Made by a program: the position numbers and the translations under genes. Positions 2,666 through 62,041 of a stretch of DNA of 64,000 nucleotides are shown piece after piece; the stretch's first letter is position 1; each line of letters begins with the position of its first letter. The DNA comes from an uncultured Methanosarcinales archaeon. Its GTDB lineage: Archaea; Nanobdellota; Nanobdellia; Woesearchaeales; CAZYIM01. The notes beneath the pieces are model-generated. The model ran no database searches, was not told the origin of the DNA, and worked only from the letters and a program-made list of their open reading frames with translations. The stretch spans positions 30,967 through 94,966 of the forward strand of contig CAZYIM010000005.1 of NCBI GenBank assembly GCA_964647565.1, read 5' to 3'.

Positions 2666-3368
2666 ACTAGACTGTGGAGAAACCATCATCGAACTAAAGA
2701 ATGTTTGGAAGATATACCAGATGGGTAATGTGGAGGTACATGCCCTTCGAGGTCTGGATCTTAGTGTGAAAAAAGGAGAGTTTCTGGCAATAATGGGACC
2801 TTCTGGAAGCGGCAAATCAACGGCTATGAACATGGTGGGCTGCCTGGATATCCCGAGCAAAGGCCAGATATTGCTATGCAACCAAGACATCTCCCAGCTT
2901 GGAGAATCTGAGCTCGCCCAGATTCGTGGAAAGAGAATAGGATTTATTTTCCAGACCTTCAACCTTATTAATACTCTTACTGCTAAGGAAAACATAATGT
3001 TGCCAATGGTTTTTCAGAACAAATCCGCAAGTGAAAGAGCGAAACGTGCAGAAAAGCTCTTGAAAATGGTTGAGCTTGATGAAAGGATGGATCACAAGCC
3101 AACAGAACTTTCAGGGGGACAGAGGCAGAGGGTAGCTATTGCACGATCTTTGGCTAATGAACCAGAAGTCATCTTGGCAGATGAACCGACAGGCAACCTG
3201 GACAGCAAGACAGGTCATAATGTGCTCGATTTCCTAAAAAAACTCCACAAGGAAAAAGGTACAACAATCGTAATGGTCACACACGATTCAGATGTGGCAA
3301 AAGGAGCCCAGAGAATTGAATTTCTCAGGGACGGTAAGATTATTAAGGATCAAATTAAGAAGAATTGA
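2658..3368 (+). CDS. ABC transporter ATP-binding protein (LolD/MacB type)
   Basis: [36 protein letters not shown]. Confidence 0.95.
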
Positions 3369-3378
3369 GGTGAATAAT

Positions 3379-16260: not shown

Positions 16261-17328
16261 GTGAAATCTATTATTGGCTTAAAAAAAGAGGTTAGTAAAC
16301 TAAACCCTACTAATAAAAAGCTTTTTAACAGATTCTTCTCAGTTACAGAGACTGTTGGAAGACTAAAAGCTCCTAAATCCATGTTTGGATATATTGAAAA
16401 GAACTTTGGCAGCATCAAGAAAGTAGAAAAGCAGAAAATAGTAAAAACATTCAACAAACTCAGCTTCGAGGGCGCCCTATTCAATGAGCTTAGAGCAAAC
16501 AGGCCTATTGAAGCCAAAACTACAGTCGATATTCACAAGCTTATTGATAAAAACTTAGGAGATCCTTTCTGCAAGCCCCTAAAGATGACTCCTGCTGATG
16601 TCTTTGGCAGGATCAAAGGCAAGAAATGCATAACTGCCAGTAATTTTGCAAAATATGACGGATGGCATGGCCTGGTTGTCTTTGACAAGCACAATCCTTT
16701 AAAAGTTAATAAAGCAGAAATTCTAGATTATTTGAATACAGCAGAACTCTGGATCAAAAAGGTGCACTGCAGGGATAAACAAGCTAATTATCCTTTTATC
16801 CTCTGGAATTGCCTATGGAAGGCGGCAGGTTCAATCATCCACGGCCATCTTCAGTTGATTGTGACCAAACAGCAACATTATTCCAAAATCGAGAGTCTAA
16901 GAAAGGTCTGGACAGACTATTCAAAAGAATACAACTCAGATTATTTTGAAGATCTATTCAAGGCGCATAAAAGTCTGGGATTAGGTGTTAAAAAAGGTAA
17001 ACTAATGATATTTTCCAGCATTACGCCTGTAAAAGAAAAAGAAAGCTGGATTGTCTCAGAAAAATTTAATAGTGCACATAAAGAAACCATAGCAGGCACA
17101 ATTCTTTCTTTCCTGAAAATGGGTGTTTCGAGCTTCAATCTGGGCAGTGTTTTCCCACCCTTAGATAAACAAGAGAAATGGACCAAATTTCCAGTTGTAA
17201 CCCGGATTTTAGATAGGGGACAACTTAGTAACAAGACATCGGATATTGGAGGTATGGAACTCTATGGCGCAAATGTAGTTGCATCTGATCCATACAAGGT
17301 TTTTAAGAAGATAAAATCATCTCTTTAA
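16261..17328 (+). CDS. GalT-like HIT-superfamily nucleotidyltransferase
   Basis: AGSIIHGHLQ (HxHxQ) motif, DPFC, ASNFAKYD. Confidence 0.7.
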   Translation: MKSIIGLKKEVSKLNPTNKKLFNRFFSVTETVGRLKAPKSMFGYIEKNFGSIKKVEKQKIVKTFNKLSFEGALFNELRANRPIEAKTTVDIHKLIDKNLGDPFCKPLKMTPADVFGRIKGKKCITASNFAKYDGWHGLVVFDKHNPLKVNKAEILDYLNTAELWIKKVHCRDKQANYPFILWNCLWKAAGSIIHGHLQLIVTKQQHYSKIESLRKVWTDYSKEYNSDYFEDLFKAHKSLGLGVKKGKLMIFSSITPVKEKESWIVSEKFNSAHKETIAGTILSFLKMGVSSFNLGSVFPPLDKQEKWTKFPVVTRILDRGQLSNKTSDIGGMELYGANVVASDPYKVFKKIKSSL

Positions 17329-24106: not shown

Positions 24107-25546
24107 TTAAAACTTTTTCTTATTAGCTAAAAGCACTAGCACGAAATACAAGGGGGCTATTAAAAGTACAGTAATACCAACTAGCACTCTGAAAAAGACT
24201 GGAAGACCGAAAGTATGAGCAACGTATGATCCTAAAGGAATCAAAATGAGATAGGGAATCAGAACCAATATACCCATTGAAGAATAATACATCTTTCGTT
24301 GATACTCAAACATGATTTTTCTGGCCAATAAACCTTGTGCTATGCCTACAAGTGCAGATCCAAAAACAGAGAAAATTGCAGCTATACCCACTGTAAGAAT
24401 ATGTGGATTGAAAGCCATAGAAAGCGGCATCAAGGCAGACAACATGGTACCAAATACCAACATCGGAGCCATTCCGATCTCTTTGTCAACAATTTTTGTT
24501 AAGTTTGGACTAACAAAAGATGCCAGAATAGCCATAAAAAAGACTACTGCTACATTAAGGAAACCTCCAAAACCAAGATATTGAAATTCTTTATAGATGA
24601 AAATGCCATAATATGTGCTTCCGAGAAGCTGAACTGCTCCAAAAAGCAGAGAGGTTATTAGCAAAAGAAGGACTAGCTTATTCTTGAAAAAAACATGGAT
24701 ATGATAACTGAGCTTGTGCATATGATTTATAATAAATGCCTTAATAGGTACATCTTCCTCTTGGGTTTTGTCCTTAAGGGAAGAAAGCATATAACCTGAG
24801 AGAATAAACATGAGCGCTGTTATCTCAAATGAGAGCAGATAGCCAAATATTTTCATCGAGAAAGTCTTACCAAATAGGGTTAATGAAAAAATAGCTCCTG
24901 TTTCGGGTATTAGGTCCATAATGAAACCTGATAAAAGCATGGTAATACCTGTAATGAGTACACCATAAGTTGCAATCTTAAGCAAGAAATGGCTAAGGTT
25001 TTCTTTCTTGATACGAGACCAAATAAGATTGTTGAAAAGATCACCATAGCTAACAACACCCAATGAACCAATCAGAAATGCAAATGTAAATAGCGGAACT
25101 GAGCGTATCGACCTAGCTAAAGCTATAAAAAGGAAGCTAAAACCAAAGAGAATGCCTGAAAAACTGATAAGATTCTTGCCAATAGTTCTCAACTTGGAAT
25201 ATTCCTGGAGAAAAGAAGTCAAAATAATTGAGATGATAGCTTTCAGGCCATTGAAAAGACCAATAAGAAAAATCGATGCTCCTGTATGTAAGAACAGGAT
25301 ATTAATGAACTGTTGCGAACCCATACCATAACCTATCCTGTCAAATATTTCCTTGATAGTAAAAATACGAGTCAGTTTGTTTTTTTCTGAACTATGCAGA
25401 TCTCTAACTTTCTCTGTCACATGCCCTATCGCATCATCTATATCCTCTGCAGAGTAGCCTTTTTCTAATAGGTTGTCTCGAACTTCAGAAATAGGCACAT
25501 GATCTACTAACTCCTCTTTTATTAACTCTACTAACTCATCCTCCAT
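24107..25546 (-). CDS. MFS transporter with N-terminal soluble helical domain
   Basis: About 12 TM segments in two halves after a ~55-aa acidic helical extension. Confidence 0.85.
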   Translation of the reverse strand: MEDELVELIKEELVDHVPISEVRDNLLEKGYSAEDIDDAIGHVTEKVRDLHSSEKNKLTRIFTIKEIFDRIGYGMGSQQFINILFLHTGASIFLIGLFNGLKAIISIILTSFLQEYSKLRTIGKNLISFSGILFGFSFLFIALARSIRSVPLFTFAFLIGSLGVVSYGDLFNNLIWSRIKKENLSHFLLKIATYGVLITGITMLLSGFIMDLIPETGAIFSLTLFGKTFSMKIFGYLLSFEITALMFILSGYMLSSLKDKTQEEDVPIKAFIINHMHKLSYHIHVFFKNKLVLLLLITSLLFGAVQLLGSTYYGIFIYKEFQYLGFGGFLNVAVVFFMAILASFVSPNLTKIVDKEIGMAPMLVFGTMLSALMPLSMAFNPHILTVGIAAIFSVFGSALVGIAQGLLARKIMFEYQRKMYYSSMGILVLIPYLILIPLGSYVAHTFGLPVFFRVLVGITVLLIAPLYFVLVLLANKKKF

Positions 25547-28578: not shown

Positions 28579-30342
28579 TTAATTCTTTGAAATAAAATCA
28601 AATAGGGCTTTTGCAGCACTCTCAGGCCCTTTGGTCTCGTAGCCAGGAATTCCAAGCATAGTCTTAATTTCGCCAACGATCATATCTTTTTCAAAAAAGA
28701 AATTGAAGAATCGCGTAGCTATTTCTTCGTGTAGATTCTCGTATTGAGGCGGTCCAAAGGGATTGGCAAAATAGCTTTGGGTTATACCTGATTCAGATGT
28801 TGTGCCCTTGGCCATCCTCTTACCTTCTTTGAACACATCGAAGGCATCCTGCCAACTCGTAAATTGATTTATGCAATCACCTTGTTGAACAGTAGAATAA
28901 TTATTTGCATATAGGATGAGATCAACATTATGACCTTGAATAATCTCTTTTAAGGTTGTGATTGGCAGTACTGCACGGGCATTGATCTTCTCAGGGCTCA
29001 TAATAATAGACCTATCAAGATTTCCATAGACAAATCCGGGCTGAAGGTCATCGAGTCTCACAAAAGCACCCGTCTCAGTACCATATGCTTTAAGTTTCCC
29101 ATCTTTAATCTCGAGTGAGCCCATATCATCAAAAATTATCACCATTTCTCTTAGATATTCCTGACTCAGTATCCTTAATGCTTCTAGCAATTCAGATTTA
29201 CCAGCTCCAGAATCACCCACGAGAATTATATTTTTAGATATGCCGTTTTTCAGACAGATTCTGACCATCGCGCCATGCAAGGGAAGACGGCCTTTTTTTA
29301 CACAGATGATATTATGCAATGTCAGCACCATCTTTTTTAGATAGCCAAAATAACCATACTCATCTTTTCTGGATACAAAACCCACAAGCAAATTATTTTC
29401 AGTATCATCATAAAATATGGTTTGTGGCTCCCCATGTTGGACTATTACTTTTTCATCCACCCCGAAAAGGTATATCGCATCAGGAGTTCTAGTCAAATCC
29501 TCATCTTCAGCTAAGTCAAACAGATTCGCCACAGCAGAGCCTAAGCCGATGAATTTCATATGAAAGAAGATGTGTATAACTAAATCACCGACTTTCGCAG
29601 GATAACATAGCCAGTCCGCGGGATCAAAGTCCAGATTCTTAATAGGATTGGAATCCACTCGCCTAAACAATCCTGTTCTTTTATTCATAAGAGGATTGAT
29701 TATTAGGGGCGGTTCAATCAGAATTTGACGGATTATTGGCGCCTGCTTTAAAAAAGAGTACGTTTCTGGCATATTCTGCTTTTGAGCGCTTGCAATGATT
29801 CCTACCTGAAATCCTGCAGGCATCTGCCTGTATACTCTCGGATGTTCAGATGTTATGTTTTCACATATGTCTCTATAGCAACTTCGGACCAAGTGATTCA
29901 ACTGTTCAATTGTATTGTTAAAAGATCGGTATGGTTTCTTATGGTAATGCTGGTCTTTTTTTTCAGTTGACAGGAGTATGAAAAAGCGTTCATAGTTACG
30001 CCAAAAATTGTAGAGCTCCTCTATAAATTGATTGAACATGTATGTATCAATAAAAAATTCATTAAATTCAGGATGGGATTTGATTATATCCTGCCTCGTA
30101 TGTTCACCTAGCAGCTGTAAGAGTTCAACTATCTTTTGGTTTTGCACAGCCTCATCCTCTGCAAAAGATGCCGGAATTATACTGAGAAGAGGAGAGTCTT
30201 TTTCTCTTAGAGAGTCAAGATATTTATACAGAACTTCTTTAAAAATAGCTGTTTGAAGCAACCCGTTATTAGTAGTACAAATATTCCCATCCGAAGCTAC
30301 TATCACCTGTAAATCTTGGAATTGATAATTTTTCTTCTTCAA
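28579..30342 (-). CDS. Divergent ATP-dependent PEP carboxykinase-like protein
   Basis: YFGYLKK, PLHGA, GDSGAGKSE P-loop, IFDD, GTETGAF, NARA. Confidence 0.75.
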   Translation of the reverse strand: MKKKNYQFQDLQVIVASDGNICTTNNGLLQTAIFKEVLYKYLDSLREKDSPLLSIIPASFAEDEAVQNQKIVELLQLLGEHTRQDIIKSHPEFNEFFIDTYMFNQFIEELYNFWRNYERFFILLSTEKKDQHYHKKPYRSFNNTIEQLNHLVRSCYRDICENITSEHPRVYRQMPAGFQVGIIASAQKQNMPETYSFLKQAPIIRQILIEPPLIINPLMNKRTGLFRRVDSNPIKNLDFDPADWLCYPAKVGDLVIHIFFHMKFIGLGSAVANLFDLAEDEDLTRTPDAIYLFGVDEKVIVQHGEPQTIFYDDTENNLLVGFVSRKDEYGYFGYLKKMVLTLHNIICVKKGRLPLHGAMVRICLKNGISKNIILVGDSGAGKSELLEALRILSQEYLREMVIIFDDMGSLEIKDGKLKAYGTETGAFVRLDDLQPGFVYGNLDRSIIMSPEKINARAVLPITTLKEIIQGHNVDLILYANNYSTVQQGDCINQFTSWQDAFDVFKEGKRMAKGTTSESGITQSYFANPFGPPQYENLHEEIATRFFNFFFEKDMIVGEIKTMLGIPGYETKGPESAAKALFDFISKN

Positions 30343-30475: not shown

Positions 30476-31999
30476 ATGAAAAAGGGGCAGATTATCTCTG
30501 GCAGCTTTGGTCAGCTTCTAGTCAGGAAGAAATCAGATGTAGATGTTGAGATTGGAGAGCTTCTGGTTGCTGAAAACAATGATATCAAGATGCTTTTCCA
30601 GGTCTTTGACCTTCAATTCGCAAGCCAGATATCACAACAGAACCTTGAGCTTATCTCAGGCATGAAGCTAGAAGAGGATGTTGATCTTGAATTCATGGAG
30701 CCACATCTTAGAAATTACTCACTGGTTTTCTTAAAAAATCTCATTACTTTAAAAGAGAAGAATGCCAAGTCTTCCAAGTCAATGCCTGAATTCTTCTCAG
30801 AAGTAAGAGAAGTGGAAAAAGAGGATCTTGATTTTCTAACCAAACCTACAGATCCTATGTTTATCGGACATCTCAGGAGTGGGGCAAAGACTATTGATTT
30901 CCCACTCTTCCTTCCAGGAAGGGATGTCTTCAGCCACCACATATTGATAAGTGGCACAACTGGAAAGGGCAAGAGCGTACTTATGAGCAACCTGCTTTGG
31001 GATGTTACTGATAAGGACTACTGTTCTATGCTAGTACTTGATCCTCATGATGAGTATTTCGGCAGGAACAAGTTGGGTTTAAAGGACCATCCTGACAAGG
31101 AAAAACTAATCTATTATTCAGCACATAATCCGCCTCCAGGTCAAAGAACCCTTAAGATCAATCTCAAGATATTAAAACCAGATCATTTTAACTTCATGGA
31201 TTTTTCACCTCCTCAAAGACAGGCAATGAATGCATATTTCCGAGAATATGGAGCTGGCTGGATTGAGGCTATTATACTGGAAAGAGAGATAAAACTTGAG
31301 TTCCAGGATACAACTTGCGCTGTGCTTAAGAGACGGTTCTGCTCCTTGCTGGATCTTGATTTTTCTGAAATGCAATTATTCTGTAATGGAGTATTTGATA
31401 TGCAAGCAGGGGAAACCCTTGTGAAGGATATTGCACAGGCTCTTGAAGAGACCAAAACAGTAATCATCGACACCAGCAATTTCTCAGGAACCCTGGAGTT
31501 ACTTATTGGCAGCATCTTGACAACAGAGATTTTCAGGAGATATAAGAATTACAAGATGAATGGTTCTTTAAAGGACAAACCTGTTATATCTATTGTACTT
31601 GAAGAAGCGCCAAGGGTTTTAGGTAAAGAGGTACTTGAAAAGGGTTCTAACATTTTCAGCACGATAGCAAGAGAGGGGAGGAAGTTCAATGTAGGCCTTA
31701 CTGCGATTACCCAACTTCCTTCATTGATTCCGCGTCAGATACTCGCAAATATCAATACCAAGATCATCCTTGGCACTGAGATGAACAGCGAAAGACAGGC
31801 TATTATTGAATCAGCTTCTCAAGATCTTTCTGAAGATAATAGAAATATTGCTTCCCTTGACAAGGGAGAGGCAATTGTGACCAGCAACTTTGCAAGGTTT
31901 GCACTGCCGATCAAGGTTCCATTCTTTGATGATGTTGCCAGAGCAAAAATAGAAGGACGTGATCAGTTTTCTCAGGATTTTTCTGGATTAAAGAAATAG
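30476..31999 (+). CDS. herA: HerA bipolar helicase/translocase
   Basis: N-terminal HAS-barrel-like region, [35 protein letters not shown]. Confidence 0.9.
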
Positions 32000-32032
32000 A
32001 AAAAGGAAAAAAAAGAAAAAAATTTAGTGGGT

Positions 32033-32776
32033 TTATTCGACTTCGATTGTCTTTTCTTCTAGACTTGCACCGCTATCTTCTGGTTTTTTCTGCTCTTTTG
32101 GCGGAGGAGTAATTATAACATTATCCTCTCCTGCTTGTGCCATTTCTTCTGCTTTCTGTGCCACTGTATCCTTAGCTGTCAAGACATGACTCTTGATATA
32201 AGGTCCAAGTCTTGTCCAAGCTGGCAAGCCTCCCAGAACAACTCCAAGCACTCCGCCACTCAAGAATAAAGGCACTGCAGTTACATAGGCTGCACCTTTT
32301 CCAAGAACTTTACCCTCTGCATAAGCAGGTTCTGCTGACCTTTCGCATGGCTGCTTGATAAATACATTCAGATAGCCATCCCAGAATCCTGCCTTCTTGG
32401 GTTTTGCTACTACATCCTTTTCGATTGCCGTATTTATCTTTTCGTCGTAGAGTTCTTTCAGCTTCTTCTTGATCTCTTTTGGGCCGCCTGAGGTTGTATC
32501 ATAGATAGTCTGTAGGATCTGCTTGTAGTCACCCTCAGACATGGTCTTGATCAGGTCTTTAGCACCTTGTTGACCTAGTCCAACATATTTTTTCACTGCA
32601 GGAGCTCCTGTCTCCTTGTAAAATTTCGTTACATCTCCTTCGAGGCCTTCAAGAGTCTGTTCAACAACATCGCCGAATTTCTCGAATTTGTTCCCAATGT
32701 TTCGTACTTTCTTATTGAAATACGATCCAAATTTTCCTTTTAACGTTTTTTCTTCTGGTTTATAGTTTGGTTCCAT
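32033..32776 (-). CDS. Hypothetical protein: amphipathic helical N-region plus Gly-rich hydrophobic hairpin
   Basis: AGGAGGTGG SD; hydrophobic GAAYVTAVPLFLSGGVLGVVLGG segment. Confidence 0.75.
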   Translation of the reverse strand: MEPNYKPEEKTLKGKFGSYFNKKVRNIGNKFEKFGDVVEQTLEGLEGDVTKFYKETGAPAVKKYVGLGQQGAKDLIKTMSEGDYKQILQTIYDTTSGGPKEIKKKLKELYDEKINTAIEKDVVAKPKKAGFWDGYLNVFIKQPCERSAEPAYAEGKVLGKGAAYVTAVPLFLSGGVLGVVLGGLPAWTRLGPYIKSHVLTAKDTVAQKAEEMAQAGEDNVIITPPPKEQKKPEDSGASLEEKTIEVE

Positions 32777-32829
32777 TTATTACCACCTCCTGATGGGGAA
32801 TAAAAAAATAAATAAAAAGGTTTCGGTTT

Positions 32830-33822
32830 CTACCTGTTCTTAGAGACCGCATAATTGGCTTTTTTATCCCCTGTCAACCCTTTGTTTATTTCTATGTTTT
32901 CTATGTTCTGAGGACCAAGATCCTCAATCATGCTGGAAAACTCCTGGTTCTTCAAGAACAGCGCTGTAGTTGGGTTATTACCAATAGCCTTGGCAAACCT
33001 ATCTATAGACTTGAGTTGTGTACGTCTCCGCTCGCATTCATCCTTCACAGCACCAAGCTCTCTTTGGGCGTCCTTAATAATTCTCTCGCCCTCAGGTCCA
33101 GCACTCACAACATAAGATGGTCTCTTAACTCTTAGGGGTTTAACACCAGTCACATTTATACCCCATACATCTTCAAAGCTCTTCTGTTCAGTAAAGCCAG
33201 AAACAACACCGTCTTTATATACAGGAATTCCTCCTAATTTGAAGTCCTTTATATAATTTAAACAACTCTCTGAAAGTTCCTGCTGCCGGGCTTCTATGTA
33301 ATCAATGGTCTTGGTCTGAAGATATGATCTAACCAGTCCGTCCAAGTTATGTTCCATAAACTTCATATCTTCGGGTCTATGTTCCACAAATCTCGCCCTA
33401 ACTGCATCCCAGGTTTTTCCTTGCTCATAGGTTATGAGCATATTCTGGATTACAATCTGGTTCACACCATTTTTATTCTCAGCTGTCATGATGCTCTGCT
33501 GGGTTTCTGCTTCAAGTGTCAACCTGTCCTGACTCTTTTGTTTGCCATCAACAGTATACATATCTTCTTCAGCCAGGTTTACATCTTTGGGGAAATGCAC
33601 CTGCTTTTGCATATGGGATACCTTATCCTGATCTTTCTCTCCAAATACATTGAACCATCTCGTACCAGGACCCATCCCTTCCCACTCAACCGAATTGTTC
33701 CAGTTAGTGGATATAGTGGACTCATATTTAGTGGGTCTGCTGCATTTAGAGATAGAACAGACGAAGTATAGTGCTGTAAAAGCCAATGGCGTCAAAACCG
33801 CAACTTTTGTTTTTGTTTTCAT
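32830..33822 (-). CDS. SPFH/band-7 (stomatin/HflKC-like) membrane protein
   Basis: N-terminal TM; DGLVRSYL...WGINVTGV....KRP; coiled coil; GNNPTTALFL; GGAGGT SD before ATG 33822. Confidence 0.7.
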   Translation of the reverse strand: MKTKTKVAVLTPLAFTALYFVCSISKCSRPTKYESTISTNWNNSVEWEGMGPGTRWFNVFGEKDQDKVSHMQKQVHFPKDVNLAEEDMYTVDGKQKSQDRLTLEAETQQSIMTAENKNGVNQIVIQNMLITYEQGKTWDAVRARFVEHRPEDMKFMEHNLDGLVRSYLQTKTIDYIEARQQELSESCLNYIKDFKLGGIPVYKDGVVSGFTEQKSFEDVWGINVTGVKPLRVKRPSYVVSAGPEGERIIKDAQRELGAVKDECERRRTQLKSIDRFAKAIGNNPTTALFLKNQEFSSMIEDLGPQNIENIEINKGLTGDKKANYAVSKNR

Positions 33823-33835
33823 TCTGTTTACCTCC

Positions 33836-34660
33836 TCACTCCACATAGACCTTAAGGCTCAGATGCTGTTCATCAGCCTTTTTGGTCACAGCTCTTGCAG
33901 CTGTCAGTACGCCCTTGGTTGCAAGATAGTCTACCACAACAGGATGAAGTTTTCCTATAACTTGGTTGTACTCTGCATCAACAAGAGCTCTTTCCTTATT
34001 TGCTTCATCTATGTCGTTCTGGGCCTGGTTTCTTGCTTCTCTCAAGATAAGATTTCTCTGTCTCTCAAGATCTGCAAACACCGCATCTCTTTGGGGAGAG
34101 ATGTTACCGGGGCACACATACCAAATGTTGTTGTTGACACCAAAGTCCCGAGCAAGATCGCTCTCATAAAGCTCTACATGCACCTGCTGATAGATCGGCA
34201 GCTTCCCATTTGCCTTAGCAAGGTTCTCATTGGCAATCTCATTTCTTTCATACTGCAAAACAGTTGATCTTGCAATACCATCAACCTGCTTTGCCAGTTC
34301 ATCAAGTGCCTTATCACCCCATTTGTAGAACCAGTTGGTCAACGATGCTGTATCCTGTGCCAACTTGGTATAAACCACCATATCAAGGGTTATGTTCTTG
34401 TTGTCTTTGGTTACGTAGTGTTGGTCCTCCTCTGTCCCATGCTCGAGCGGCAGATCTATTGCAGTAAGGCCTGCCCAATGTGATTTTACACCAGGCTTTG
34501 CAAGCTTGAATTGTGGCGCCTTATATATTTCCAGCTCTCCGCTCAATCTCTTCCTTATACCTATGTTCCCCAACTGAATATCTGCACACGAGGTCAATCC
34601 CATAGCCAGTGCAGATGTTAATAATAGAGCACCAGCTCTGCTTATTTTCTTCTTACTCAA
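33836..34660 (-). CDS. SPFH/band-7 lipoprotein-like protein
   Basis: TTG start after GGAGGT; LTSC lipobox-like motif; VTKDNKNITLDMVVY; DGIARSTV; FGV; Ala/Glu-rich coiled coil. Confidence 0.75.
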   Translation of the reverse strand: MSKKKISRAGALLLTSALAMGLTSCADIQLGNIGIRKRLSGELEIYKAPQFKLAKPGVKSHWAGLTAIDLPLEHGTEEDQHYVTKDNKNITLDMVVYTKLAQDTASLTNWFYKWGDKALDELAKQVDGIARSTVLQYERNEIANENLAKANGKLPIYQQVHVELYESDLARDFGVNNNIWYVCPGNISPQRDAVFADLERQRNLILREARNQAQNDIDEANKERALVDAEYNQVIGKLHPVVVDYLATKGVLTAARAVTKKADEQHLSLKVYVE

Positions 34661-34727
34661 TTTTTTTACCTCCTAGGTTATATACTTCTATCTAGGTGCA
34701 AGCAGTTTCATACCTGCTACCGCGTTG

Positions 34728-35579
34728 TCAGTTTCTCCTTTTGGCCAACTCTTTCATCACATATCCCCCTCGGTCTTTGGCCAGAAAATATTGGTTTGCC
34801 TTGATGAAAAGAGAGTTGAATCTACCCTCTCTTTTACCAGGACCATATTGGTCTATCAGATGCAGCTCCAAGAAAGTCTCAAACTTAGGAGCATTTGTCA
34901 GCTTAAAGGCCTCTTGGTTGATCGGATCCACAGATCTGACTTTCTTGTAGTCAGCCCAGAAATCATCTGGACGTTCGTATTGTGAGAGAAGCTTGTAAGC
35001 TTCTGCCTCTAACAGTTCGCCATCCATTATTTCCTGAAGAGCCCTGTGCCGATCCTCTGTCTGAATTTTCTTGGCAAGATTCTTGGCAGTAGTAAAATAC
35101 TTGGAAGCAGCATTGCCAATCTTCTTGTTATCCATGCTAGGCCAGGCATAAGTATAGAGCAGCCAACCAACGTATATTTCAAAGACAGCACCAACTCCTA
35201 AAAATAAAAGGTGCCGGTGCAGCATGCCCCTGAAAACAGCCAATTCCAAAATATTCAGACCTATTACAGTACCTGCGATGATAGGCATGGCTTTTCTGCT
35301 TTGGCTTTTACGTTCTACCTCCTGCTTCTTGGCATCATAGACATCATAAGCAGGTAAAAGATAACTCTTGACAGCAGATTCTAACAAAGAGATATGGTCG
35401 TTGCTTATCACCTCGGCACCGATCTCTGCCTTCATCATCTCCTGTCTAAAATACTCATTTACCCGCTCTGGCCTATTAGTGACCTCCTCTGTCTCAAATA
35501 TCTTAAATAAATCCACTGCCACATGCTCAAGGCTTTTCTCATTTATTGAGGAAGGGATATGATTCTTTTTTCTCTTCAT
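34728..35579 (-). CDS. Hypothetical two-TM membrane protein
   Basis: GAGGTGA SD; two central hydrophobic helices flanked by charged helical regions. Confidence 0.75.
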   Translation of the reverse strand: MKRKKNHIPSSINEKSLEHVAVDLFKIFETEEVTNRPERVNEYFRQEMMKAEIGAEVISNDHISLLESAVKSYLLPAYDVYDAKKQEVERKSQSRKAMPIIAGTVIGLNILELAVFRGMLHRHLLFLGVGAVFEIYVGWLLYTYAWPSMDNKKIGNAASKYFTTAKNLAKKIQTEDRHRALQEIMDGELLEAEAYKLLSQYERPDDFWADYKKVRSVDPINQEAFKLTNAPKFETFLELHLIDQYGPGKREGRFNSLFIKANQYFLAKDRGGYVMKELAKRRN

Positions 35580-35583
35580 AGTA

Positions 35584-36795
35584 TCACCTCTCGTGATACT
35601 GCTCTTTCAATAGTCCTGCAGGCTTTTCCACTTCTCCAAGGCCAAGTTTTTGTATCATATCTTGGACATTCTCATGAAAGATTCGCTCGTTGTGTGCATA
35701 TAATGTCACAGCTTCTGTCAGTTCATCTTTTGCTTTTTCCAATGTTTCAGGCTCAAAGAATGGATTCACCAAAACAAAGCCTACTCTGTCCAACATCACC
35801 CTTGTGCCAAGAGAATTGAAGATTTGGACATCATTCATCACATCTTTGTATGTGAAGTATGCATCCATAGCCCTGTCAGATATACCCTGTGCCTGTAACA
35901 GATGAAAGGTGTTGTATGCCAGATGTTTGGTGTAGTGAATATCCACATCAAGTTCCATGTGCTGGGCAGACATACCTTTAATGGTTTCCTCAAACTGCTG
36001 TATCTGAAGGTCCATTCCCTGCATCATGGTGTTAGCACCTTTAACTCTCAATCCTGATTCAAGATACGTGTCCTTGAAGTCGGCCATCGTCCTCTGCAGA
36101 TCTGTCTTGACAACATACAGGTCTGGTTTTACATCGTCACCACCATCAATTCTCTGTATCAACTCAAGACACGCGAAAAGACCTGCATCATGGCACAATG
36201 CGAGTTGGTTCCTGAAATCTTTCTTGGAATAATCCTCGTCTCGCAGGATCTTATCCATAATAGTGTAAAGCCAGTCCAACTTGTTCAATTTGGCTTGCAC
36301 TATTTTATAGCTCAGGCTATTGTCCTTGATGTCCTCTGCAGCCTCTTTGGCAATGTCAAACATCAGCCCTCTCTTATTCCTTAGAATCCCTAAGCTGCCG
36401 TGTACAGCACCTTTATGTTTGGTCTGTGCATTGTACAGATCAAGAATAATGTTCCCAAGCTTTTCAGGCGTCAACTGAGGTCCTTTGTACAGACCTCGCG
36501 TCATAGTTGTCAGTACCCTTTGGAAACCAGTGCTTGAGGGGTGCTTTATAGCAGCTTTGAACTTTTCCAGTGTGGTTGTCGAATCCGAGAGGTATCTTTC
36601 TGCCTGGTTGGCAATTGTGGACTGCAGAATCATATACTGCTTACACTTTTCATTATCTGCGGCACCTCTATCCAGTTCTGCCTGGGTTAAAGCCTCGTTC
36701 GTCTTTATGACCTCTACAAGGTCCTTGTCCTGCTTGTTATCAGATTTAGCAAGACCTCGCATGGTCTCTATAAATGTAGAGTCTTCTTTCTCCAT
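35584..36795 (-). CDS. All-helical coiled-coil protein, tentatively TelA/KlaA (toxic anion resistance)-like
   Basis: 403-aa ORF with AGGAG SD; C-terminal FEPETLEKAKDELTEAV resembles the TelA C-terminal pattern by eye only. Confidence 0.5.
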   Translation of the reverse strand: MEKEDSTFIETMRGLAKSDNKQDKDLVEVIKTNEALTQAELDRGAADNEKCKQYMILQSTIANQAERYLSDSTTTLEKFKAAIKHPSSTGFQRVLTTMTRGLYKGPQLTPEKLGNIILDLYNAQTKHKGAVHGSLGILRNKRGLMFDIAKEAAEDIKDNSLSYKIVQAKLNKLDWLYTIMDKILRDEDYSKKDFRNQLALCHDAGLFACLELIQRIDGGDDVKPDLYVVKTDLQRTMADFKDTYLESGLRVKGANTMMQGMDLQIQQFEETIKGMSAQHMELDVDIHYTKHLAYNTFHLLQAQGISDRAMDAYFTYKDVMNDVQIFNSLGTRVMLDRVGFVLVNPFFEPETLEKAKDELTEAVTLYAHNERIFHENVQDMIQKLGLGEVEKPAGLLKEQYHER

Positions 36796-36843
36796 GTTAT
36801 CAACTCCTTTGTTTTTTTATTTTCAAAAACTAAATCCTTCTTT

Positions 36844-37005
36844 TCAGTAGATGCCCCACATCCAATCTTGTAGTGTTGCTTTTTCTTCTTCGGTATCACC
36901 TCCGTTGAAAATCCAGCTCTTTCTATCTGGACATAGTTTATCATTTCCGCTTCTACGGTTGGATATGCCAATTCTAATCAGCAATCTATTACAGCCTCTA
37001 TTCAT
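36844..37005 (-). CDS. 53-aa small ORF (MNRGCNRLLIRIGISN...LQDWMWGIY)
   Basis: GGTGAG SD upstream; lies in the leader of the SPFH operon. Confidence 0.35.
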   Translation of the reverse strand: MNRGCNRLLIRIGISNRRSGNDKLCPDRKSWIFNGGDTEEEKATLQDWMWGIY

Positions 37006-37037
37006 TTCATCTCACCATTTTTTTATCTAGTAAAACT

Positions 37038-37300
37038 TCAGTAGGATGTTGTTGTTTGCACCTCCATCTAGTTTAATCCTCTCTGAGCCACAGTGTAGCC
37101 TCCCCGCTAGTTAGGGAGGCAACTTGGGCTTCAGCTTAGGTCTTGGCCCCTGTCGGGGTATGCCATCAGCTAAACAGTTTCACCTCATTTTTACCAACTT
37201 CTTAGGGGTTTTGGGGTAGAGCATATTTTTGCAATCACCTCCGACCAATTTACACCCGTGGCCGAGTTTATAGATATAGATAGGTTAAAGAAATATAAGA
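37038..37300 (-). promoter_or_regulatory. Structured leader with three SD-led micro-ORFs
   Basis: ORFs 37224-37180, 37166-37131 and 37067-37038; hairpins GCCTCCC/GGGAGGC and CCCC-TGTC-GGGG; TATA-like box near 37292-37300. Confidence 0.45.
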
Positions 37301-37436
37301 AAGTTTTTAGGAAAAATTTAGGCTTTGACTATAAAAATTTTAATAATATTAGATTAAAAATGAAAATAAATCTGATTGTTAAATTAAGCTAATCCCAGTA
37401 ACAAACCTTAAAAACTCCATTTTCTTCCCATTTTGT

Positions 37437-38645
37437 ATGAAGTTTGCTCATATGGCAGATGTGCATATCGGAGCCTGGAGGGATCCTAAGCTCAAGGAAT
37501 TAAGTGTTAAAGCGTTTACCAGTGCTATTGACCTGTGTATTGAGAAGAAGATTGATTTTGTGCTCATATCCGGCGATCTTTTCCACACATCCATCCCGTC
37601 TATTGATGGATTGAAAGCTGTTGTCAAAAAGCTGAAACAGTTGAAGAATAAAAACATCCCAGCCTATATCGTTGCAGGCAGCCACGATTTCTCTCCAAGC
37701 GGAAAGACCATGTTGGATGTTCTTGAAGAAGCAGAGTTGGTCAAGGATGTATTCAGAGGAGATATCAAGGACAATCAAATCTTGTTGAAGTTCACCAAGG
37801 ATGAGAAGACAGAAACTTTGCTTACAGGCATGCTAGGTAAGAAAGGAATGCTTGAAAAAGAGTATTATGAAAGCATAGGCAACAGGGAAGAACTGGAAAA
37901 ACAAGAGGGCTTTAAGATATTCCTTTTCCATACTGCCATCACTGAACTAAAGCCCAAAGAATTAGAAAAAATGGACTCCAACCCCATCTCATTTTTACCC
38001 AAGGGCTTCAACTATTATGCTGGCGGCCATGTTCATATCGTTGAACAGAAATCTCTGGAAGGCTACAAGAACGTTGTCTACCCAGGTCCAGTCTTCCCAG
38101 CCAACTTCGCAGAGCTCGAGAAGCTGGAAACTGGCGGCATTTACATCTTTGAGGATAACAAAACCAGTTATGAGCCAATTAAGATAATCAACACGTGTTC
38201 AATAAAAGTAGATGCAGAACACAGGACACCAGAACAGGTTGAAGCAGATATTCTACAAAAGATAGAACAACAGGAATTCATAAATACTATTCTACTTCTG
38301 AGGGTTGAGGGTAAACTCAAGTCTGGAAGACCCTCTGACATTGATTTCAAAAAGATATTTGCAGAAGTCTATGAGAAGGGTGCTTTTTTTGTTATGAAAA
38401 ATACTATAAAACTAACCTCAGAAGAGTTTGAGGAGATCAAAATTACTTCTTCATCTGTCGATGAGCTCGAGGATACTCTTATCAAGGAGCACATTGGTCA
38501 GATCAATACCAGTTTCTCTGACAGAGAAGGGGATATAATCAAGAGTCTGATGAAAATTCTTGGTGAAGACAAGAATGAGGGTGAAAGAGTTCATCAATAT
38601 CAAGCAAGATTGAAATCAGAAGTTCAGAAGCTACTAGATCTTTAA
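37437..38645 (+). CDS. mre11: Mre11 DNA repair nuclease
   Basis: ADVHIG, SGDLFH, AGSHD, LFHT, AGGHVH, VYPG phosphoesterase motifs. Confidence 0.9.
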   Translation: MKFAHMADVHIGAWRDPKLKELSVKAFTSAIDLCIEKKIDFVLISGDLFHTSIPSIDGLKAVVKKLKQLKNKNIPAYIVAGSHDFSPSGKTMLDVLEEAELVKDVFRGDIKDNQILLKFTKDEKTETLLTGMLGKKGMLEKEYYESIGNREELEKQEGFKIFLFHTAITELKPKELEKMDSNPISFLPKGFNYYAGGHVHIVEQKSLEGYKNVVYPGPVFPANFAELEKLETGGIYIFEDNKTSYEPIKIINTCSIKVDAEHRTPEQVEADILQKIEQQEFINTILLLRVEGKLKSGRPSDIDFKKIFAEVYEKGAFFVMKNTIKLTSEEFEEIKITSSSVDELEDTLIKEHIGQINTSFSDREGDIIKSLMKILGEDKNEGERVHQYQARLKSEVQKLLDL

Positions 38646-39698
38646 CTACATCTTTTCAAGAACACTTAAGACCTTCAACTCTAATGGCTTCTTTCTATTA
38701 TAGTTCATGAACAAACTCTTAAAGCCATTCTTGACTAGCATCTTCAAATCAGCTCTTGTAAGTCCCAGATTGGTTGAAGCCAACCACATTTCTTTGGTTA
38801 TGTTTGTATTAGATATCAGTCTATTATCTGTATTTATTGTAACCCTTAAATTTTCTTGCAAGAATGTCCTTAATGGGTGGGATTGGTAACTTGCAGAAGA
38901 ACAGGTATGGATGTTACTTGATGGACATACTTCAATACCTATCCTGTTATCTCTAATATAGTTCAATAGTTTTTCGTTCTGAAGAACCTTGGTCCCATGT
39001 CCGATCCTTCTTGCATTCAGATAGTTGATTGCATCTGCGATTGCAGTAGCATCACATTCCTCTCCTGCATGTATGGTAACATAGACAAAATTATCATGAA
39101 TTATTCTAAAGATATCTGCAAAGCTCCTTGGCTCATTACCTAATTCAGGACCTGCCAGATCAAAACCTACGACACCTTTATATTGATAGTTCACAGCCAT
39201 CTCAGCTGCAATCTCAGTCATGTGCTTATCAGAACGCATACCACTTAGGATCAGTCCTGTATGGATTCCGAATTTCTTCTGAGCTCTTTTCAGACCTCTC
39301 AACACCGCTTCGATGATAAAGGGTAGTTTCATACCATATTTCATGTAGTTGGTCGGTCCAAATCTTACTTCAATGCACCAAACATTCTCTCTTGCAGCGT
39401 CTTCTGCAAGTTCATATGCAGCCCGCTCAAGTGCTTCTTCTGTGCATAGAACACTTTCTGTTATATCAAATGATTTTAGATATTGAGCTAATGAGTGACA
39501 TCCATTGTCCTGCATCACCACTAACTTTCTCAATTCTTTGGGATTGTAGGTAGGAAGTTTGACCTTGTTTTTCTTGGCCAACTCAATAAGGGTTTTTATT
39601 CTCAATGATCCGCCTATATGGACGTGAAGATCTGTTTTAGGAAGTTTCTTAATCCATTCAAGAGTTGGCGGTCTGTTATCTGATGGCTTTATGAACAT
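38646..39698 (-). CDS. add: Adenosine deaminase
   Basis: PKTDLHVHIGGS, GFDLAG, TIHAGE, RIGHG, EVCPSSN, NTDN; start placed at MFIKP. Confidence 0.93.
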   Translation of the reverse strand: MFIKPSDNRPPTLEWIKKLPKTDLHVHIGGSLRIKTLIELAKKNKVKLPTYNPKELRKLVVMQDNGCHSLAQYLKSFDITESVLCTEEALERAAYELAEDAARENVWCIEVRFGPTNYMKYGMKLPFIIEAVLRGLKRAQKKFGIHTGLILSGMRSDKHMTEIAAEMAVNYQYKGVVGFDLAGPELGNEPRSFADIFRIIHDNFVYVTIHAGEECDATAIADAINYLNARRIGHGTKVLQNEKLLNYIRDNRIGIEVCPSSNIHTCSSASYQSHPLRTFLQENLRVTINTDNRLISNTNITKEMWLASTNLGLTRADLKMLVKNGFKSLFMNYNRKKPLELKVLSVLEKM

Positions 39699-39759
39699 AT
39701 TACTAGAAACTAATAGAAAACTGTTTATAAATCTTTTGTTTTTTGCCACTTAAAAGTAG

Positions 39760-47557: not shown

Positions 47558-50488
47558 ATGCCAAAACTAAAAACATGGATAAAAACTGCACTACTCACTC
47601 TAGGTGTGGGAATAGGAATTGCCTTTGGACAAGAAGCCTATAAACCACTTGTAAACTTATCTCAGCCTCAGTATGACAAGGCAGTCGGACATATCTCTCT
47701 TAAAAAGATCGACTCAGAGAAGTATAGGACTGCAAAGTGGGCAAAAGATATTCCCCGGATAAAAGACATCCTGAAAAAGGATTTTAAATACCCTGGAAAA
47801 ATCAGCAACTACTGGCTGGCTAAGTTTGCAGAAAACAAAGGGCTTGAGTTCTTTGAAGAGCTAGGTGCAAGACAAAGAGCATACGACAAAATAGGACAGG
47901 TAAAACCTAACCACTTGCCAGCATTATACACAGCCCTCGAGCATGAAGGAGTCTTTGTGCTTGAAAAATTAAACACCCTGTTTCAAGAAACAAGTATATA
48001 CCCTCGCCATGATTATTGGAATTATGATGAAAACCCAAGAGGTATTGAAAATATAGAGAACTTTGCATATTTATGTAAGAATGGCGGAGCAGAACTCATC
48101 AGAGATCTTGAATTTCATATGAGAGCTGATGCTGAATGCTTTGATGCAACAATGAGTTTATTAAACTCTTCAAAAAAAGACAGTGTTAAAACAATCGGAA
48201 GAAAGATCTCAGATTATTTCTTCGAAAAATTCACATTCACACCACAAAACACAAGTCAGGCAATAACAATGATAGATCTGGGAATAGATGATAAGCTTGA
48301 TTTATTTGATTATCTGTACAGTCTTGGACTTCGTAGCTTTGCCATGTATCCTGACATAAGAGATTGTTTAATCCAAAATCTGGCAGAATTATCAAGAACA
48401 GATTTTCCTAAAAAATTCAAATACTTTATTGAAAAGTTTAATCCAAACACTTTATGCTTTGGAAAGAAAACAAAAGAAGGTTCAGTAACATTCGCATTGT
48501 TAAAAGACAGATGTACCCTTTCACAATTAAACCATTTTGAAAAGCACGATGCTTTCTATACTAAGCTCTTGAATATTTGCCCAATTAGGACTAGTCTAGA
48601 ACCCTCTTTTCTTATAAGTATCGCAAAGTCAGGCGAGGTACGTGCAAAGATGCTGAAACATGCAAAAGGAATGTATGAAGCAACTCGAGCATTAGGAGGC
48701 TCAAAAAGAATATCAGGACATGATCTGTTCTGGGGCATTGCTGCAGACAATGCAAAGCTCCCCACAAAAAACCAACTAGATTTCCTCAAAACAAAAGGCG
48801 CTGCTTTCTGGGAAAAACTCAAAACACAAGTCCCCTACATAAGAGGAATTAACATAAGGAGCCTTATCAGCCATCATAAGTTTCTTAACAACCCAATAAT
48901 AGAGGATATAGAAAACGAACTTCCGAAAATGAAGGCAATCATGGACTTCATTACAAACAATTGGAAGTTTGAAAAAGTATATTCATCAAATGGGAAAGGA
49001 GGTATAGTGGACCTATATAATCTTTCAAAAAAACATGGCCTAGAAAAGATACACAAATTAAAGGAAACAGGATGGAAACAAAGAAACTTTTATTGGAGAC
49101 CCGAAGTTCAAAATTCCTCTGTTCATGATTTACTGGAGTTCTTTGATTCTGATGGACTGACGTACCTGACTTTTCTTCGTGATGACCTCGGGATTGATAT
49201 TTCAGAAAGTAAACTCGGATCAATGACTTTAGATAAGAAAAGAAGAGATATAGTCATGTCAAAAGGGAAAGAATTAATCAATTTTGCAAAAAAGTATAAT
49301 CCTAATATTCCGATACACCCTTCGGATATAAACCGAAAAAAGGATGACTATAAAATAACACCCTTTATGTCTTTAATTTGCTCACCAGACAAAATTCAGG
49401 ATTTAAAGACCGAAGGAAAAATAATACTTGAATATGCAATGGACAATATTGGTTTGGAAGATATATCCTTTCAAGAACTTTTCGGATTTAAATATGAACT
49501 TGGACCTGATTATAATGAAATTATTCGCCACTCCTTAACAAAAGTCTGCAATAACAAAAAATTTGAACAGTTCTTAAAAAATAACATGAAGCAAATACGC
49601 GAAATTTCAAAAACAAATTTCGGAATTGAAAAATGGGAGTTTGAAGTGATCAGCAAGTTATATGCAAACTACATTACATCATGGTCTGATTCAAAAAAGA
49701 AAGGAACTGAAATAAGTCTTGATCAATATCACGGAAACATCATAACTGAATTAAAAAAACTAAAAGATGCAAAACTCAAAAAAGTGAACGACTCAGAATC
49801 AATGTACCAGTTAATTTGGATGAGTAAAGAAATAGGTGCAGAAAACACAGCACTATTATACAACAAGTTCAACATCACCCATCCAAAAAGATTCACAAAA
49901 AGAGGACTTGAAGATCAGATCAAGCTCGCCAAAGGAGAAATCAAACTAAAAAAACCTCCTGGCATATTTGTTGTTACCCAACATGAAGATGGTGTTTTCA
50001 GACCAATGTTATCAAACCTCAAAAGAATTTTTCCTGAAAATAGCTGGATATTATATGAAGCAGGAAAAGAGACTGAATTTACTTACAGCATTAAAGACGC
50101 TTATCAAACATATAACGAAATACATAAACTAGCTATTGGAGGACACGGATATCCCGCAGGTACAATGCTTGATAAAAAGTATCAAGATGAATACATTTTG
50201 GATATCCATGATGAGGAAGAACTACAAAAAGAAAAGCTCTATAACTGCATGGCAAAAAACGGGCTTGCCTTACTTATAAGCTGTTTTACTGGCTGGAACG
50301 GAATTCTTGAGAACAATATGGGCAACATGACTGCCAGAGTATTTAGAACCATGACCTCTGCACCAGACCAAGCAGCTTCTTTAGCTACAGTAATCAGAGA
50401 TAGAGACAACAGCATCACATATATAACTCATGGAAATTCAGTAATTGGTTACTTCTTTACGCCACCCACAGAAACACTTGGTGATTAA
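47558..50488 (+). CDS. Large exported protein with C-terminal caspase-like (clan CD/DUF4347-like) His-Cys domain
   Basis: N-terminal signal/TM; LAIGGHG...LLISCFTG near the C-terminus. Confidence 0.6.
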   Translation: MPKLKTWIKTALLTLGVGIGIAFGQEAYKPLVNLSQPQYDKAVGHISLKKIDSEKYRTAKWAKDIPRIKDILKKDFKYPGKISNYWLAKFAENKGLEFFEELGARQRAYDKIGQVKPNHLPALYTALEHEGVFVLEKLNTLFQETSIYPRHDYWNYDENPRGIENIENFAYLCKNGGAELIRDLEFHMRADAECFDATMSLLNSSKKDSVKTIGRKISDYFFEKFTFTPQNTSQAITMIDLGIDDKLDLFDYLYSLGLRSFAMYPDIRDCLIQNLAELSRTDFPKKFKYFIEKFNPNTLCFGKKTKEGSVTFALLKDRCTLSQLNHFEKHDAFYTKLLNICPIRTSLEPSFLISIAKSGEVRAKMLKHAKGMYEATRALGGSKRISGHDLFWGIAADNAKLPTKNQLDFLKTKGAAFWEKLKTQVPYIRGINIRSLISHHKFLNNPIIEDIENELPKMKAIMDFITNNWKFEKVYSSNGKGGIVDLYNLSKKHGLEKIHKLKETGWKQRNFYWRPEVQNSSVHDLLEFFDSDGLTYLTFLRDDLGIDISESKLGSMTLDKKRRDIVMSKGKELINFAKKYNPNIPIHPSDINRKKDDYKITPFMSLICSPDKIQDLKTEGKIILEYAMDNIGLEDISFQELFGFKYELGPDYNEIIRHSLTKVCNNKKFEQFLKNNMKQIREISKTNFGIEKWEFEVISKLYANYITSWSDSKKKGTEISLDQYHGNIITELKKLKDAKLKKVNDSESMYQLIWMSKEIGAENTALLYNKFNITHPKRFTKRGLEDQIKLAKGEIKLKKPPGIFVVTQHEDGVFRPMLSNLKRIFPENSWILYEAGKETEFTYSIKDAYQTYNEIHKLAIGGHGYPAGTMLDKKYQDEYILDIHDEEELQKEKLYNCMAKNGLALLISCFTGWNGILENNMGNMTARVFRTMTSAPDQAASLATVIRDRDNSITYITHGNSVIGYFFTPPTETLGD

Positions 50489-59516: not shown

Positions 59517-60134
59517 ATGGCGTATGGAGGAGGTCTTACCTATGCTTTACAAACACTTGAACATTGGGGAATCACAGATGTTTTAATTCCGTTCATTTTG
59601 GTTTTTACCCTAGTTTTTGCAGTTATGCAAAAAACCAAGATTCTTGGTAAAGGAAAGAAAAACTATAATGTTATGGTTGCTCTGGTGATGGCTCTTGCGG
59701 TAGTAATTCCGCATGTCATGGGAACATATCCACCGAACGGCGATGTTGTTGAGATCATCAACAAGGCGCTGCCCAATATATCTCTTGTTGGCGTAGCGAT
59801 TCTTATGCTGTTATTGATAATCGGCACTTTTGGCGGTGAAGTCAAGCTAGCAGGGACTGGCCTGGCTGGATGGGCAGTAATTTTTTCAATCATCGCTGTT
59901 GCAGCTATTTTCCTGGGTGCATCTGGTGTTTTCGGACACAGGTGGTCCTGGTTTCGCAACATATTAAACCCCGAGACTGAGGCACTTATCATTATCATAC
60001 TGGTCTTTGGCATCATCATGTGGTTTGTTACCAAAGAAGATGGTGAAGATAAAAAGAAGACCAAAGAAGGCGAAAAGTTCCTCGATAGCTGGGGTAAGGT
60101 ACTCGGAGGTAAATCTGGAGACAAGATCGATTAA
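59517..60134 (+). CDS. Multi-TM membrane protein, paralog 2
   Basis: GITDVLIPFILVFTLVFAVMQKTKILG...KNYNVMVALVMA; GGTGA SD. Confidence 0.8.
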   Translation: MAYGGGLTYALQTLEHWGITDVLIPFILVFTLVFAVMQKTKILGKGKKNYNVMVALVMALAVVIPHVMGTYPPNGDVVEIINKALPNISLVGVAILMLLLIIGTFGGEVKLAGTGLAGWAVIFSIIAVAAIFLGASGVFGHRWSWFRNILNPETEALIIIILVFGIIMWFVTKEDGEDKKKTKEGEKFLDSWGKVLGGKSGDKID

Positions 60135-61946: not shown

Positions 61947-62041
61947 TTTAATAATAAAGTTTATATATCTATTATATTAAATCTTGTATTAACTAGATAA
62001 TAAAGTTTTCGCATAGTAGGAGGGTGTTAAAAAGAGGTAAA

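Follow-up and report, generated by a model that had tools for sequence, protein, structure and literature searches.

What kind of system is encoded by a compact block of five genes that lies between the DNA-repair genes herA and mre11 in the genome of an uncultured marine archaeon of the Woesearchaeales, and do its products belong to one machine? The block occupies the reverse strand of a stretch of 64,000 nucleotides (contig CAZYIM010000005.1 of assembly GCA_964647565.1, positions 30,967 to 94,966; hereafter the window), and its genes are referred to as g1 to g5 in the order of transcription. A first-pass annotation of this DNA had described a five-gene membrane system in which a TelA-like coiled-coil protein (g1) and a membrane protein with two transmembrane segments (g2) accompany two SPFH-like proteins (g3 and g4) and a fifth protein (g5). 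The analysis reported here identifies g3 and g4, by profile comparison, as real but extremely divergent SPFH proteins, and it finds g1–g4 in the same order in a second genome, next to different flanking genes.

Pfam recognizes g3 as a Band_7 protein (PF01145) by a narrow margin (25.2 bits against a cut-off of 23.6, E = 1.9e-5). Both proteins were compared with this family by profile–profile alignment (hhalign, local mode), with Band_7 alignments drawn from genomes of this order and two-row orthologue alignments as queries. Against the combined Band_7 profile (43 sequences), the g4 family aligned over residues 20–291 and 208 columns (probability 94.4, P = 8.7e-8) and the g3 family over residues 13–252 and 221 columns (probability 93.1, P = 3.1e-7). 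A stomatin-only profile of 32 sequences was matched by both families as well (P = 5.3e-5 for g4 and P = 3.7e-4 for g3). Taken separately, the SPFH core gave P = 7.3e-5 for g3 and P = 2.8e-5 for g4 and the helical tail gave P = 0.028 and P = 0.016, respectively. Controls against the combined profile gave P = 0.34 for reversed g4, P = 0.06 for reversed g3, P = 0.54 for g2 and P = 0.35 for g1. The hallmark stretch VTKDNKNITLDMVVYTKL of g3 aligns with iTkDn..v.V.avvyykV of the Band_7 profile. The succession of anchor, SPFH domain and helices was found in both proteins, which have hydrophobic N-termini and align with the profile all the way from anchor to helices, and a low-confidence AlphaFold2 model of g4 places helices at residues 243–300. 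The clusters closest to g4 in the ESM Atlas bear the name Band 7 (score 0.95); this is a lead only, with the family present in no more than 11–16% of the cluster members. The first-pass reading of two adjacent, mutually very divergent SPFH-like proteins is thereby confirmed, and the Band_7 match that had been expected for each was obtained for both by profile–profile comparison and for g3 alone by Pfam.

The same genome also encodes a canonical stomatin (Band_7 141 bits) and a more ordinary pair of adjacent Band_7 genes (contig C46 (7000–13000), genes 1577–2581 and 2578–3825). The genes of this second pair encode proteins of 334 and 415 amino acids, overlap by 4 nucleotides and have no g1- or g2-like neighbours; similar pairs are present in genomes G021 and G002.

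The g3 and g4 proteins were also modelled as a pair. An ESMFold2 heterodimer of g3 (residues 26–274) and g4 (residues 28–330) reached an interface score (ipSAE) of 0.74 (0.73, 0.74 and 0.75 in the individual runs), compared with 0.00 for the best of three controls. Of 157 solved complexes 116 attain the pass mark used, as do 2 of 215 mismatched pairs, counts that hold only roughly here because our own two-row alignments were supplied for each chain. Contact agreement between runs was at least 84%, the predicted local distance difference test score (pLDDT) of the partner was at least 72, and both chains scored 73–80 in the complex. In the model, the two chains touch along their SPFH domains and along the long helices that come next. 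Because SPFH hetero-pairs have already been solved (HflK/C, prohibitins, flotillins), the pass may reflect memorised structures, and it indicates likeness to such pairs rather than binding. With two adjacent divergent paralogues and a heterodimer model far above its control, g3 and g4 resemble an HflK/HflC-type hetero-pair at the level of the model, and a g3–g4 hetero-oligomer is plausible. The hetero-oligomeric SPFH cage proposed in the first-pass annotation is in agreement with the 1:1 heterodimer model as far as the pairing goes, and the ring or cage itself is a step beyond it that we infer.

All five genes are preceded by GGAGG-type cores (AGGAG, GAGGTGA, TAGGAGGT, GAGGAGGT and AGGAGGTG), as the first-pass annotation had stated for five co-oriented genes with strong Shine–Dalgarno (SD) motifs. 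When an SD core was defined as at least 5 nucleotides within positions −20 to −4 of mechanically assigned starts, it was found in five of five cassette genes and in 11 of the 47 other open reading frames (ORFs) of at least 150 codons in the window, a comparison set that leaves out four shadow ORFs overlapping longer genes (504–1037, 6519–6989, 33650–34267 and 59663–60124) and the 3′-open ORF 62024–64000. The intergenic gaps from g1–g2 to g4–g5 measure 4, 67, 13 and 53 nucleotides. The cassette genes are real, and g1–g4 have collinear orthologues in another genome of the order. Rfam and tRNA scans gave no match in the window (for Rfam, none in the g1–mre11 spacer either), a scan for bacterial-type promoters and terminators gave counts no higher than the shuffle expectation, and a tblastn search of the genome (E 1) found no paralogue of g1–g5.

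The second genome (G014, contig 13) belongs to another family of the same order. It carries orthologues of g1, g2, g3 and g4 in the same order and on the same strand (47%, 35%, 32% and 36% identity, respectively), with flanks that differ from those of the window cassette. No counterpart of g5 was found beside this block, where an unrelated protein of 533 amino acids follows g4 and a protein of 246 amino acids precedes g1; the conserved unit therefore consists of the four genes g1–g4, and the five-gene system of the first-pass annotation is reduced to four. Its concern that the genes might never co-occur in other genomes is removed for g1–g4 by the same synteny.

Outside these two genomes the cassette is very rare. 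Searches for g1 that included the genome itself were positive in 2 of 61 genomes, in 3 of 401 genomes of the order (one of them weakly, E = 8e-5) and in 1 of 401 genomes of the class. Word-indexed searches yielded two g1 homologues and, for g4, the G014 protein only, a scan of a genome collection returned the G014 record only, and a scan of viral contigs with g4 returned none. No locus came from a metagenome scan that used the g1 alignment; a second scan, with the g1 homologue P0007 as query, gave a single contig of 1974 nucleotides. Homologues of g1 are also known as MAF34862.1 (on a 16-kb record), P0007 itself (on a 6.8-kb JGI contig) and P0004 (on a 4.7-kb contig). The label Candidatus Woesearchaeota is borne by the syntenic relative and by one NCBI protein homologous to g1, in line with the DPANN lineage suggested by the first-pass annotation. 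In the literature, no report was found that unites SPFH, TelA and operon, and the accessible text of two DPANN papers that mention SPFH (PMC13607799 and PMC7619361) does not describe the cassette.

Table 1. Features of the cassette and its borders in the window (positions count from the first nucleotide of the window).
Feature	Position	Strand	Reading	Basis and remarks
herA	30476-31999	+	left flank	Pfam DUF87/HerA 2.9e-17, NCBIfam HerA models
left direct repeat, 17 nt	31988-32004	+	possible target-site duplication	lies over the herA stop codon
g5	32033-32776	-	N-terminal part and tail charged; single hydrophobic, Gly-rich stretch of 28 residues (161-188)	247 aa; ORF, SD core, T-rich tract past stop
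g4	32830-33822	-	second divergent SPFH protein; predicted N-terminal signal or anchor, conserved Cys (C27-SRPT)	330 aa if counted from the ATG that follows the SD core; longest frame starts at 33846
g3	33836-34660	-	predicted lipoprotein (LTSC lipobox), divergent SPFH/Band_7 domain, C-terminal helices	274 aa, TTG start; ORF and SD core
g2	34728-35579	-	membrane protein, two-helix hydrophobic hairpin (~96-145) between two soluble domains	283 aa; ORF and SD core
g1	35584-36795	-	soluble all-helical long coiled-coil protein	403 aa; ORF and SD core; no Pfam or NCBIfam model
spacer g1-mre11	36796-37436		between divergent genes; presumed cassette promoter	641 nt
right direct repeat, 17 nt	37285-37301	+	possible target-site duplication	15/17 identical to left copy; 136 nt upstream of mre11
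mre11	37437-38645	+	right flank	Pfam Metallophos, NCBIfam Mre11_Pyroc 8.9e-32

The g1 protein contains no hydrophobic segment by hydropathy analysis and has no match in Pfam, NCBIfam or PDB sequence searches. Its AlphaFold2 model is entirely helical (pLDDT 58, predicted template modelling score 0.34), with long helices at residues 21–84, 110–185, 223–343 and 349–384, and fold searches with the model returned generic coiled coils only. A search of 1.84 billion representative sequences with the g1 family profile gave seven proteins at E ≤ 1e-3, namely four full-length relatives, two fragments and an Ig/RTX protein of 1147 amino acids that is probably spurious. By these searches g1 founds a very rare family.

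The first-pass annotation had tentatively called g1 TelA-like and had expected a TelA match at this position, and neither Pfam nor profile–profile comparison supplied one. None of the nine g1-family members matches Pfam TelA (PF05816), even at E values of up to 1–10. An hhalign comparison of an 8-row g1 alignment with an 8-row TelA alignment gave P = 0.16 (probability 0.4%), which lies at the background set by the unrelated g2, g3 and g4 alignments (P = 0.12–0.45), and the TelA alignment, made of one match from a genome of the phylum and seven annotated plasmid genes, is small enough to miss a very remote relation. PF05816 has no match in the genome itself and is above its cut-off in 1 of the 201 genomes of the phylum searched. 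Neither TerD, TerC, KlaA/TelB nor other ter or kla genes were found among the five proteins or in their flanks, and the Pfam profiles PspA_IM30 and Snf7 match none of the nine g1-family members. A protein of 440 amino acids in genome G350 (contig C42 (54000–72000), 8349–9671) has about 80 C-terminal residues in common with the g1 family (hhalign P = 2.4e-4, probability 43%). It is encoded on a high-GC contig and adjoins an AAA ATPase, and inspection by eye suggested two more proteins nearby, one ThiF/E1-like and one bearing an H-x-H...S-x-x-D (JAB-like) motif.

The hydrophobic segments of g2 are adjacent (~96–120 and 123–143). Four charged residues in or at this hairpin (E112, R117, R122 and E134) are kept in the orthologue from G014, and two conserved Glu and two conserved Arg residues are unusual for a plain anchor. 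Searches of Pfam, NCBIfam, PADLOC and PHROG-type collections gave no family above noise for g2. The position of g5 suggests co-transcription with g1–g4, yet the gene is not conserved with the core.

Both SPFH proteins carry candidate export and anchoring signals. The N-terminus of g3 consists of a KKK..R n-region and a hydrophobic core followed by the LTSC lipobox that the first-pass annotation had pointed out. A custom regular expression, which is not a trained predictor, identified 46 ORFs with lipobox signal peptides (LAGC, LISGC, LTSC and similar, g3 among them) in the 2770 ORFs of at least 120 codons in the genome. This number makes lipoprotein anchoring credible in this organism and points to widespread use of such anchors in this Woesearchaeote. 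The N-terminus of g4 is hydrophobic, and the Cys behind it is shared by the window protein (ISKC) and its orthologue (LNGC). From the lipobox and the N-terminal signals, the SPFH domains of both proteins would face outward.

The cassette splits two co-oriented genes, herA and mre11, which lie 5.4 kb apart with the cassette between them on the opposite strand. The mre11 locus was compared across 29 relatives: 13 have herA directly upstream, 15 have an upstream flank of about 1.5 kb without herA, and one is cut at a contig end. The GC content of the cassette genes (0.417–0.448) is above that of the genome (0.384). Because it interrupts herA–mre11 and is GC-richer than the genome, the cassette looks acquired and apparently mobile. 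The pattern of the 17-nucleotide direct repeats at its borders (up to two mismatches) has three matches in the window where 0.17 are expected; noticed post hoc and AT-rich, the repeat is a weak mark of insertion. The spacer between g1 and mre11 contains a GC-richer patch at about 37036–37275 (GC 0.44–0.51, compared with 0.17–0.39 around it) with a potential hairpin (GCCTCCCC...GGGGAGGC) and folding z-scores of −1.6 and −1.9; it is unique in the genome and shows no similarity to the mre11 loci of the relatives. Eight DNA sequencing runs from two marine/seawater studies contain the stretch or part of it, and no RNA run is listed. Contigs from four marine metagenome runs bridge both cassette borders and contain no empty-site variant, a result limited by the loss of rare variants from metagenome contigs and by uncovered parts, which are uninformative on empty sites.

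Further genes in the window complete the picture of the locus. A convergent adenosine deaminase gene (38646–39749) follows mre11, so that no rad50 lies directly downstream. Divergent from herA is a gene for a P-loop protein of 587 amino acids (28579–30342), whose matches are all weak, to various P-loop families and, at E = 5e-4, to a PEPCK-like NCBIfam model. The window also encodes glycogen synthesis, glutamine synthetase and GatD/GatB-type genes, and four ORFs (47558–50488, 3292–4632, 16261–17328 and 24107–25546, encoding 976, 446, 355 and 479 amino acids) have no Pfam family at E = 1e-5. The genome (2.68 Mb in 86 contigs, 86.9% complete) is large for its order, in which 60 listed relatives measure 0.6–2.1 Mb.

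Our preferred reading, to which we give somewhat better than an even chance, is that g1–g4 form an acquired core, accompanied by the variable g5, that encodes an HflK/C-like SPFH scaffold on the outer face of the membrane with new partners. In this scheme a lipid or a signal anchor would tie g3 and g4 to the outside of the cytoplasmic membrane. Side by side, in the manner of HflK/HflC, prohibitin 1/2 and flotillin 1/2, the two would co-assemble, and their hetero-oligomeric ring or cage would cover a patch of membrane. The g2 protein would probably be the enclosed client or the anchor, with both of its soluble domains probably in the cytoplasm, and g1, translationally coupled to it across the 4-nucleotide gap, may act as its cytoplasmic partner or effector. 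The module might then sense or control the state of the membrane patch, in response to integrity loss or stress or as part of a conflict function. A more elaborate form of this reading, which we regard as possible and distinctly less probable, is an undescribed membrane-spanning SPFH machine, found to date in a few Woesearchaeota only, in which an outward, lipid-anchored g3/g4 hetero-cage encloses a g2 oligomer coupled to cytoplasmic g1. The intramembrane Glu and Arg residues of such a g2 oligomer could make it a gated ion or lipid conduit, and the machine would fill the role of FtsH (with HflK/C) or PspA (with SamGHI) without homologous parts and would move between genomes as a cassette.

Several observations weigh against the preferred scaffold reading. 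Pfam finds no family in g4, the G014 orthologue of g3 is below Pfam Band_7 detection at E = 1e-3, and a direct hhalign comparison of g3 with g4 is not significant (P = 0.021). The orthologue alignments of g3 and g4 hold two rows each, and the AlphaFold2 model of g4 made from such an alignment (pLDDT 35) is unusable for fold comparison. The ISKC context of the g4 Cys is not a classical lipobox. The synteny of g1–g4 is seen in one other genome, gene order is what ties g1 and g2 to the SPFH pair, and on the 1974-nucleotide metagenome contig that carries the distant g1 relative the next ORF, which is partial, is not g2-like (P = 0.3).

A cassette directed against viruses or competitors would account for the patchy and very rare distribution, the insertion into a conserved gene pair at a deviating GC content, the variable accessory gene g5 beside a conserved core, the conserved charges in the g2 membrane hairpin and a weak match of g3 residues 1–124 to the phage family phrog_200, annotated as lipoprotein (E = 1.3e-4). 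The SPFH pair and g2 would then restrain a membrane-active effector and g1 would sense infection, with activation collapsing the membrane as in abortive infection. We consider this unlikely, since PADLOC-DB 2.0 contains no family that matches g1–g5 at E values of up to 1, and the best match among the seven proteins tested with PADLOC was at noise level (E = 0.033, for a neighbour in G014). Pfam and NCBIfam detect no nuclease, protease or NTPase domain in the cassette, its flanks in the window hold housekeeping genes and no recognisable defence genes, and the four metagenome runs, within the limits of their contigs, show no empty site. That the genes share no machine at all, and are unrelated membrane genes co-oriented by chance, has a lower probability again. 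No functional tie can be read from g1, g2 and g5, which lack a known family, and a different gene lies downstream of the distant g1 relative; a chance arrangement is, however, difficult to reconcile with g1–g4 order, strand and tight spacing kept at 32–47% identity in another family with different flanks, with gaps of 4 nucleotides (g1–g2) and 13 nucleotides (g3–g4), and with a g3–g4 model that passes its controls.

Two further proposals are less probable than a chance arrangement. The first-pass annotation had pointed to the envelope-stress regulons of Bacillus, to which TelA/XpaC and flotillins belong; g1 would then be a TelA/XpaC-type protein for toxic-anion or envelope stress that works with flotillin-like proteins. 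The g1 protein resembles TelA in its length and all-helical nature, and a cluster with 54% TelA appears at rank 11 in the ESM Atlas (score 0.90), where recognition of the query is below the usual level and the match is a lead only. Against this stand the background-level profile similarity, the empty Pfam result for all nine family members, the lack of a TelA match in the genome and the absence of ter neighbours, and we rate the idea as improbable. The lowest probability of all goes to a host-contact or cell-surface structure of an episymbiotic DPANN cell, in which outward SPFH lipoproteins would organise a contact patch with g1 and g2 as the anchor inside. The predicted position of the SPFH domains outside the membrane and the Woesearchaeota lineage would agree with such a structure. 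The cassette, however, is present in 2–3 of the approximately 800 genomes of the class and order that were searched and is therefore no general DPANN feature, the genome is large and metabolically rich for the group, and Pfam detects no adhesin-like domain.

For the scaffold reading, HflK/HflC offers a close comparison, with two adjacent divergent SPFH paralogues, an N-terminal anchor, an SPFH domain on the outer face (predicted for g3 and g4) and, in the model, a side-by-side hetero-assembly whose contacts follow the SPFH domains and the helices after them. HflK/C forms a cage around FtsH according to the available text of PMC12048511 and PMC13220708. Searches of the block and of the genome (86.9% complete) detected neither FtsH (PF01434, Peptidase_M41; control positive in 10 of 14 reference genomes) nor NfeD (PF01957), which extends to the genome what the first-pass annotation had noted for the block. 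In contrast to HflK/HflC, no FtsH was found with the cassette, g3 is predicted to be held by a lipid and not by a transmembrane helix, the g3 and g4 sequences are at the detection limit, and neither putative partner, the hairpin protein g2 or the coiled-coil protein g1, has a known family. The ordinary SPFH pair on contig C46, which lacks such partners, is a further difference.

The pspA-ydjGHI (samGHI) operon of Bacillus subtilis similarly has four parts, combining an SPFH protein and membrane protein(s) with a helical protein that is soluble. Its membrane proteins and SPFH protein recruit PspA and act on the membrane, as far as the accessible sections of PMC8581546 and PMC13713150 describe it. 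YdjI/SamI is single and cytosolic, whereas the cassette encodes two SPFH proteins predicted to lie outside; at the Pfam level, g1 matches neither PspA_IM30 nor Snf7 and g2 matches neither partner family. We take g1 to be about twice the length of PspA. The stomatin–NfeD pairs of Pyrococcus (PH1511/PH1510) likewise combine an SPFH gene with a membrane partner in an operon. They differ from the cassette in their NfeD, and stomatins face the cytoplasm. Prohibitin 1/2 and flotillin 1/2 of eukaryotes build hetero-oligomeric SPFH cages from two paralogues in the portions of PMC12478178 and PMC11260169 that are available, as is proposed here for g3 and g4. The membrane side, the anchors and the partners are different. 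ESCRT-III homologues were not found in this archaeal group according to the accessible part of PMC7619361.

The cassette represents a compact and self-contained case of a barely recognisable SPFH hetero-pair fixed to two partners of no known family. SPFH cages occur across every domain of life, and to our knowledge their clients are known in few cases, namely FtsH, m-AAA proteases, certain channels and, through YdjI, PspA. SPFH pairing as such is known; what appears to be new here is a candidate hetero-pair that is rare, apparently mobile and accompanied by partners of no known family. If the proteins do not form one complex, the locus would contain two SPFH genes, very divergent but otherwise ordinary, beside neighbours of no known family. 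If the four proteins do form one complex, they would provide a new type of client for SPFH biology and a context for the orphan families of g1 and g2, and lipobox-anchored SPFH proteins would exist in DPANN archaea.

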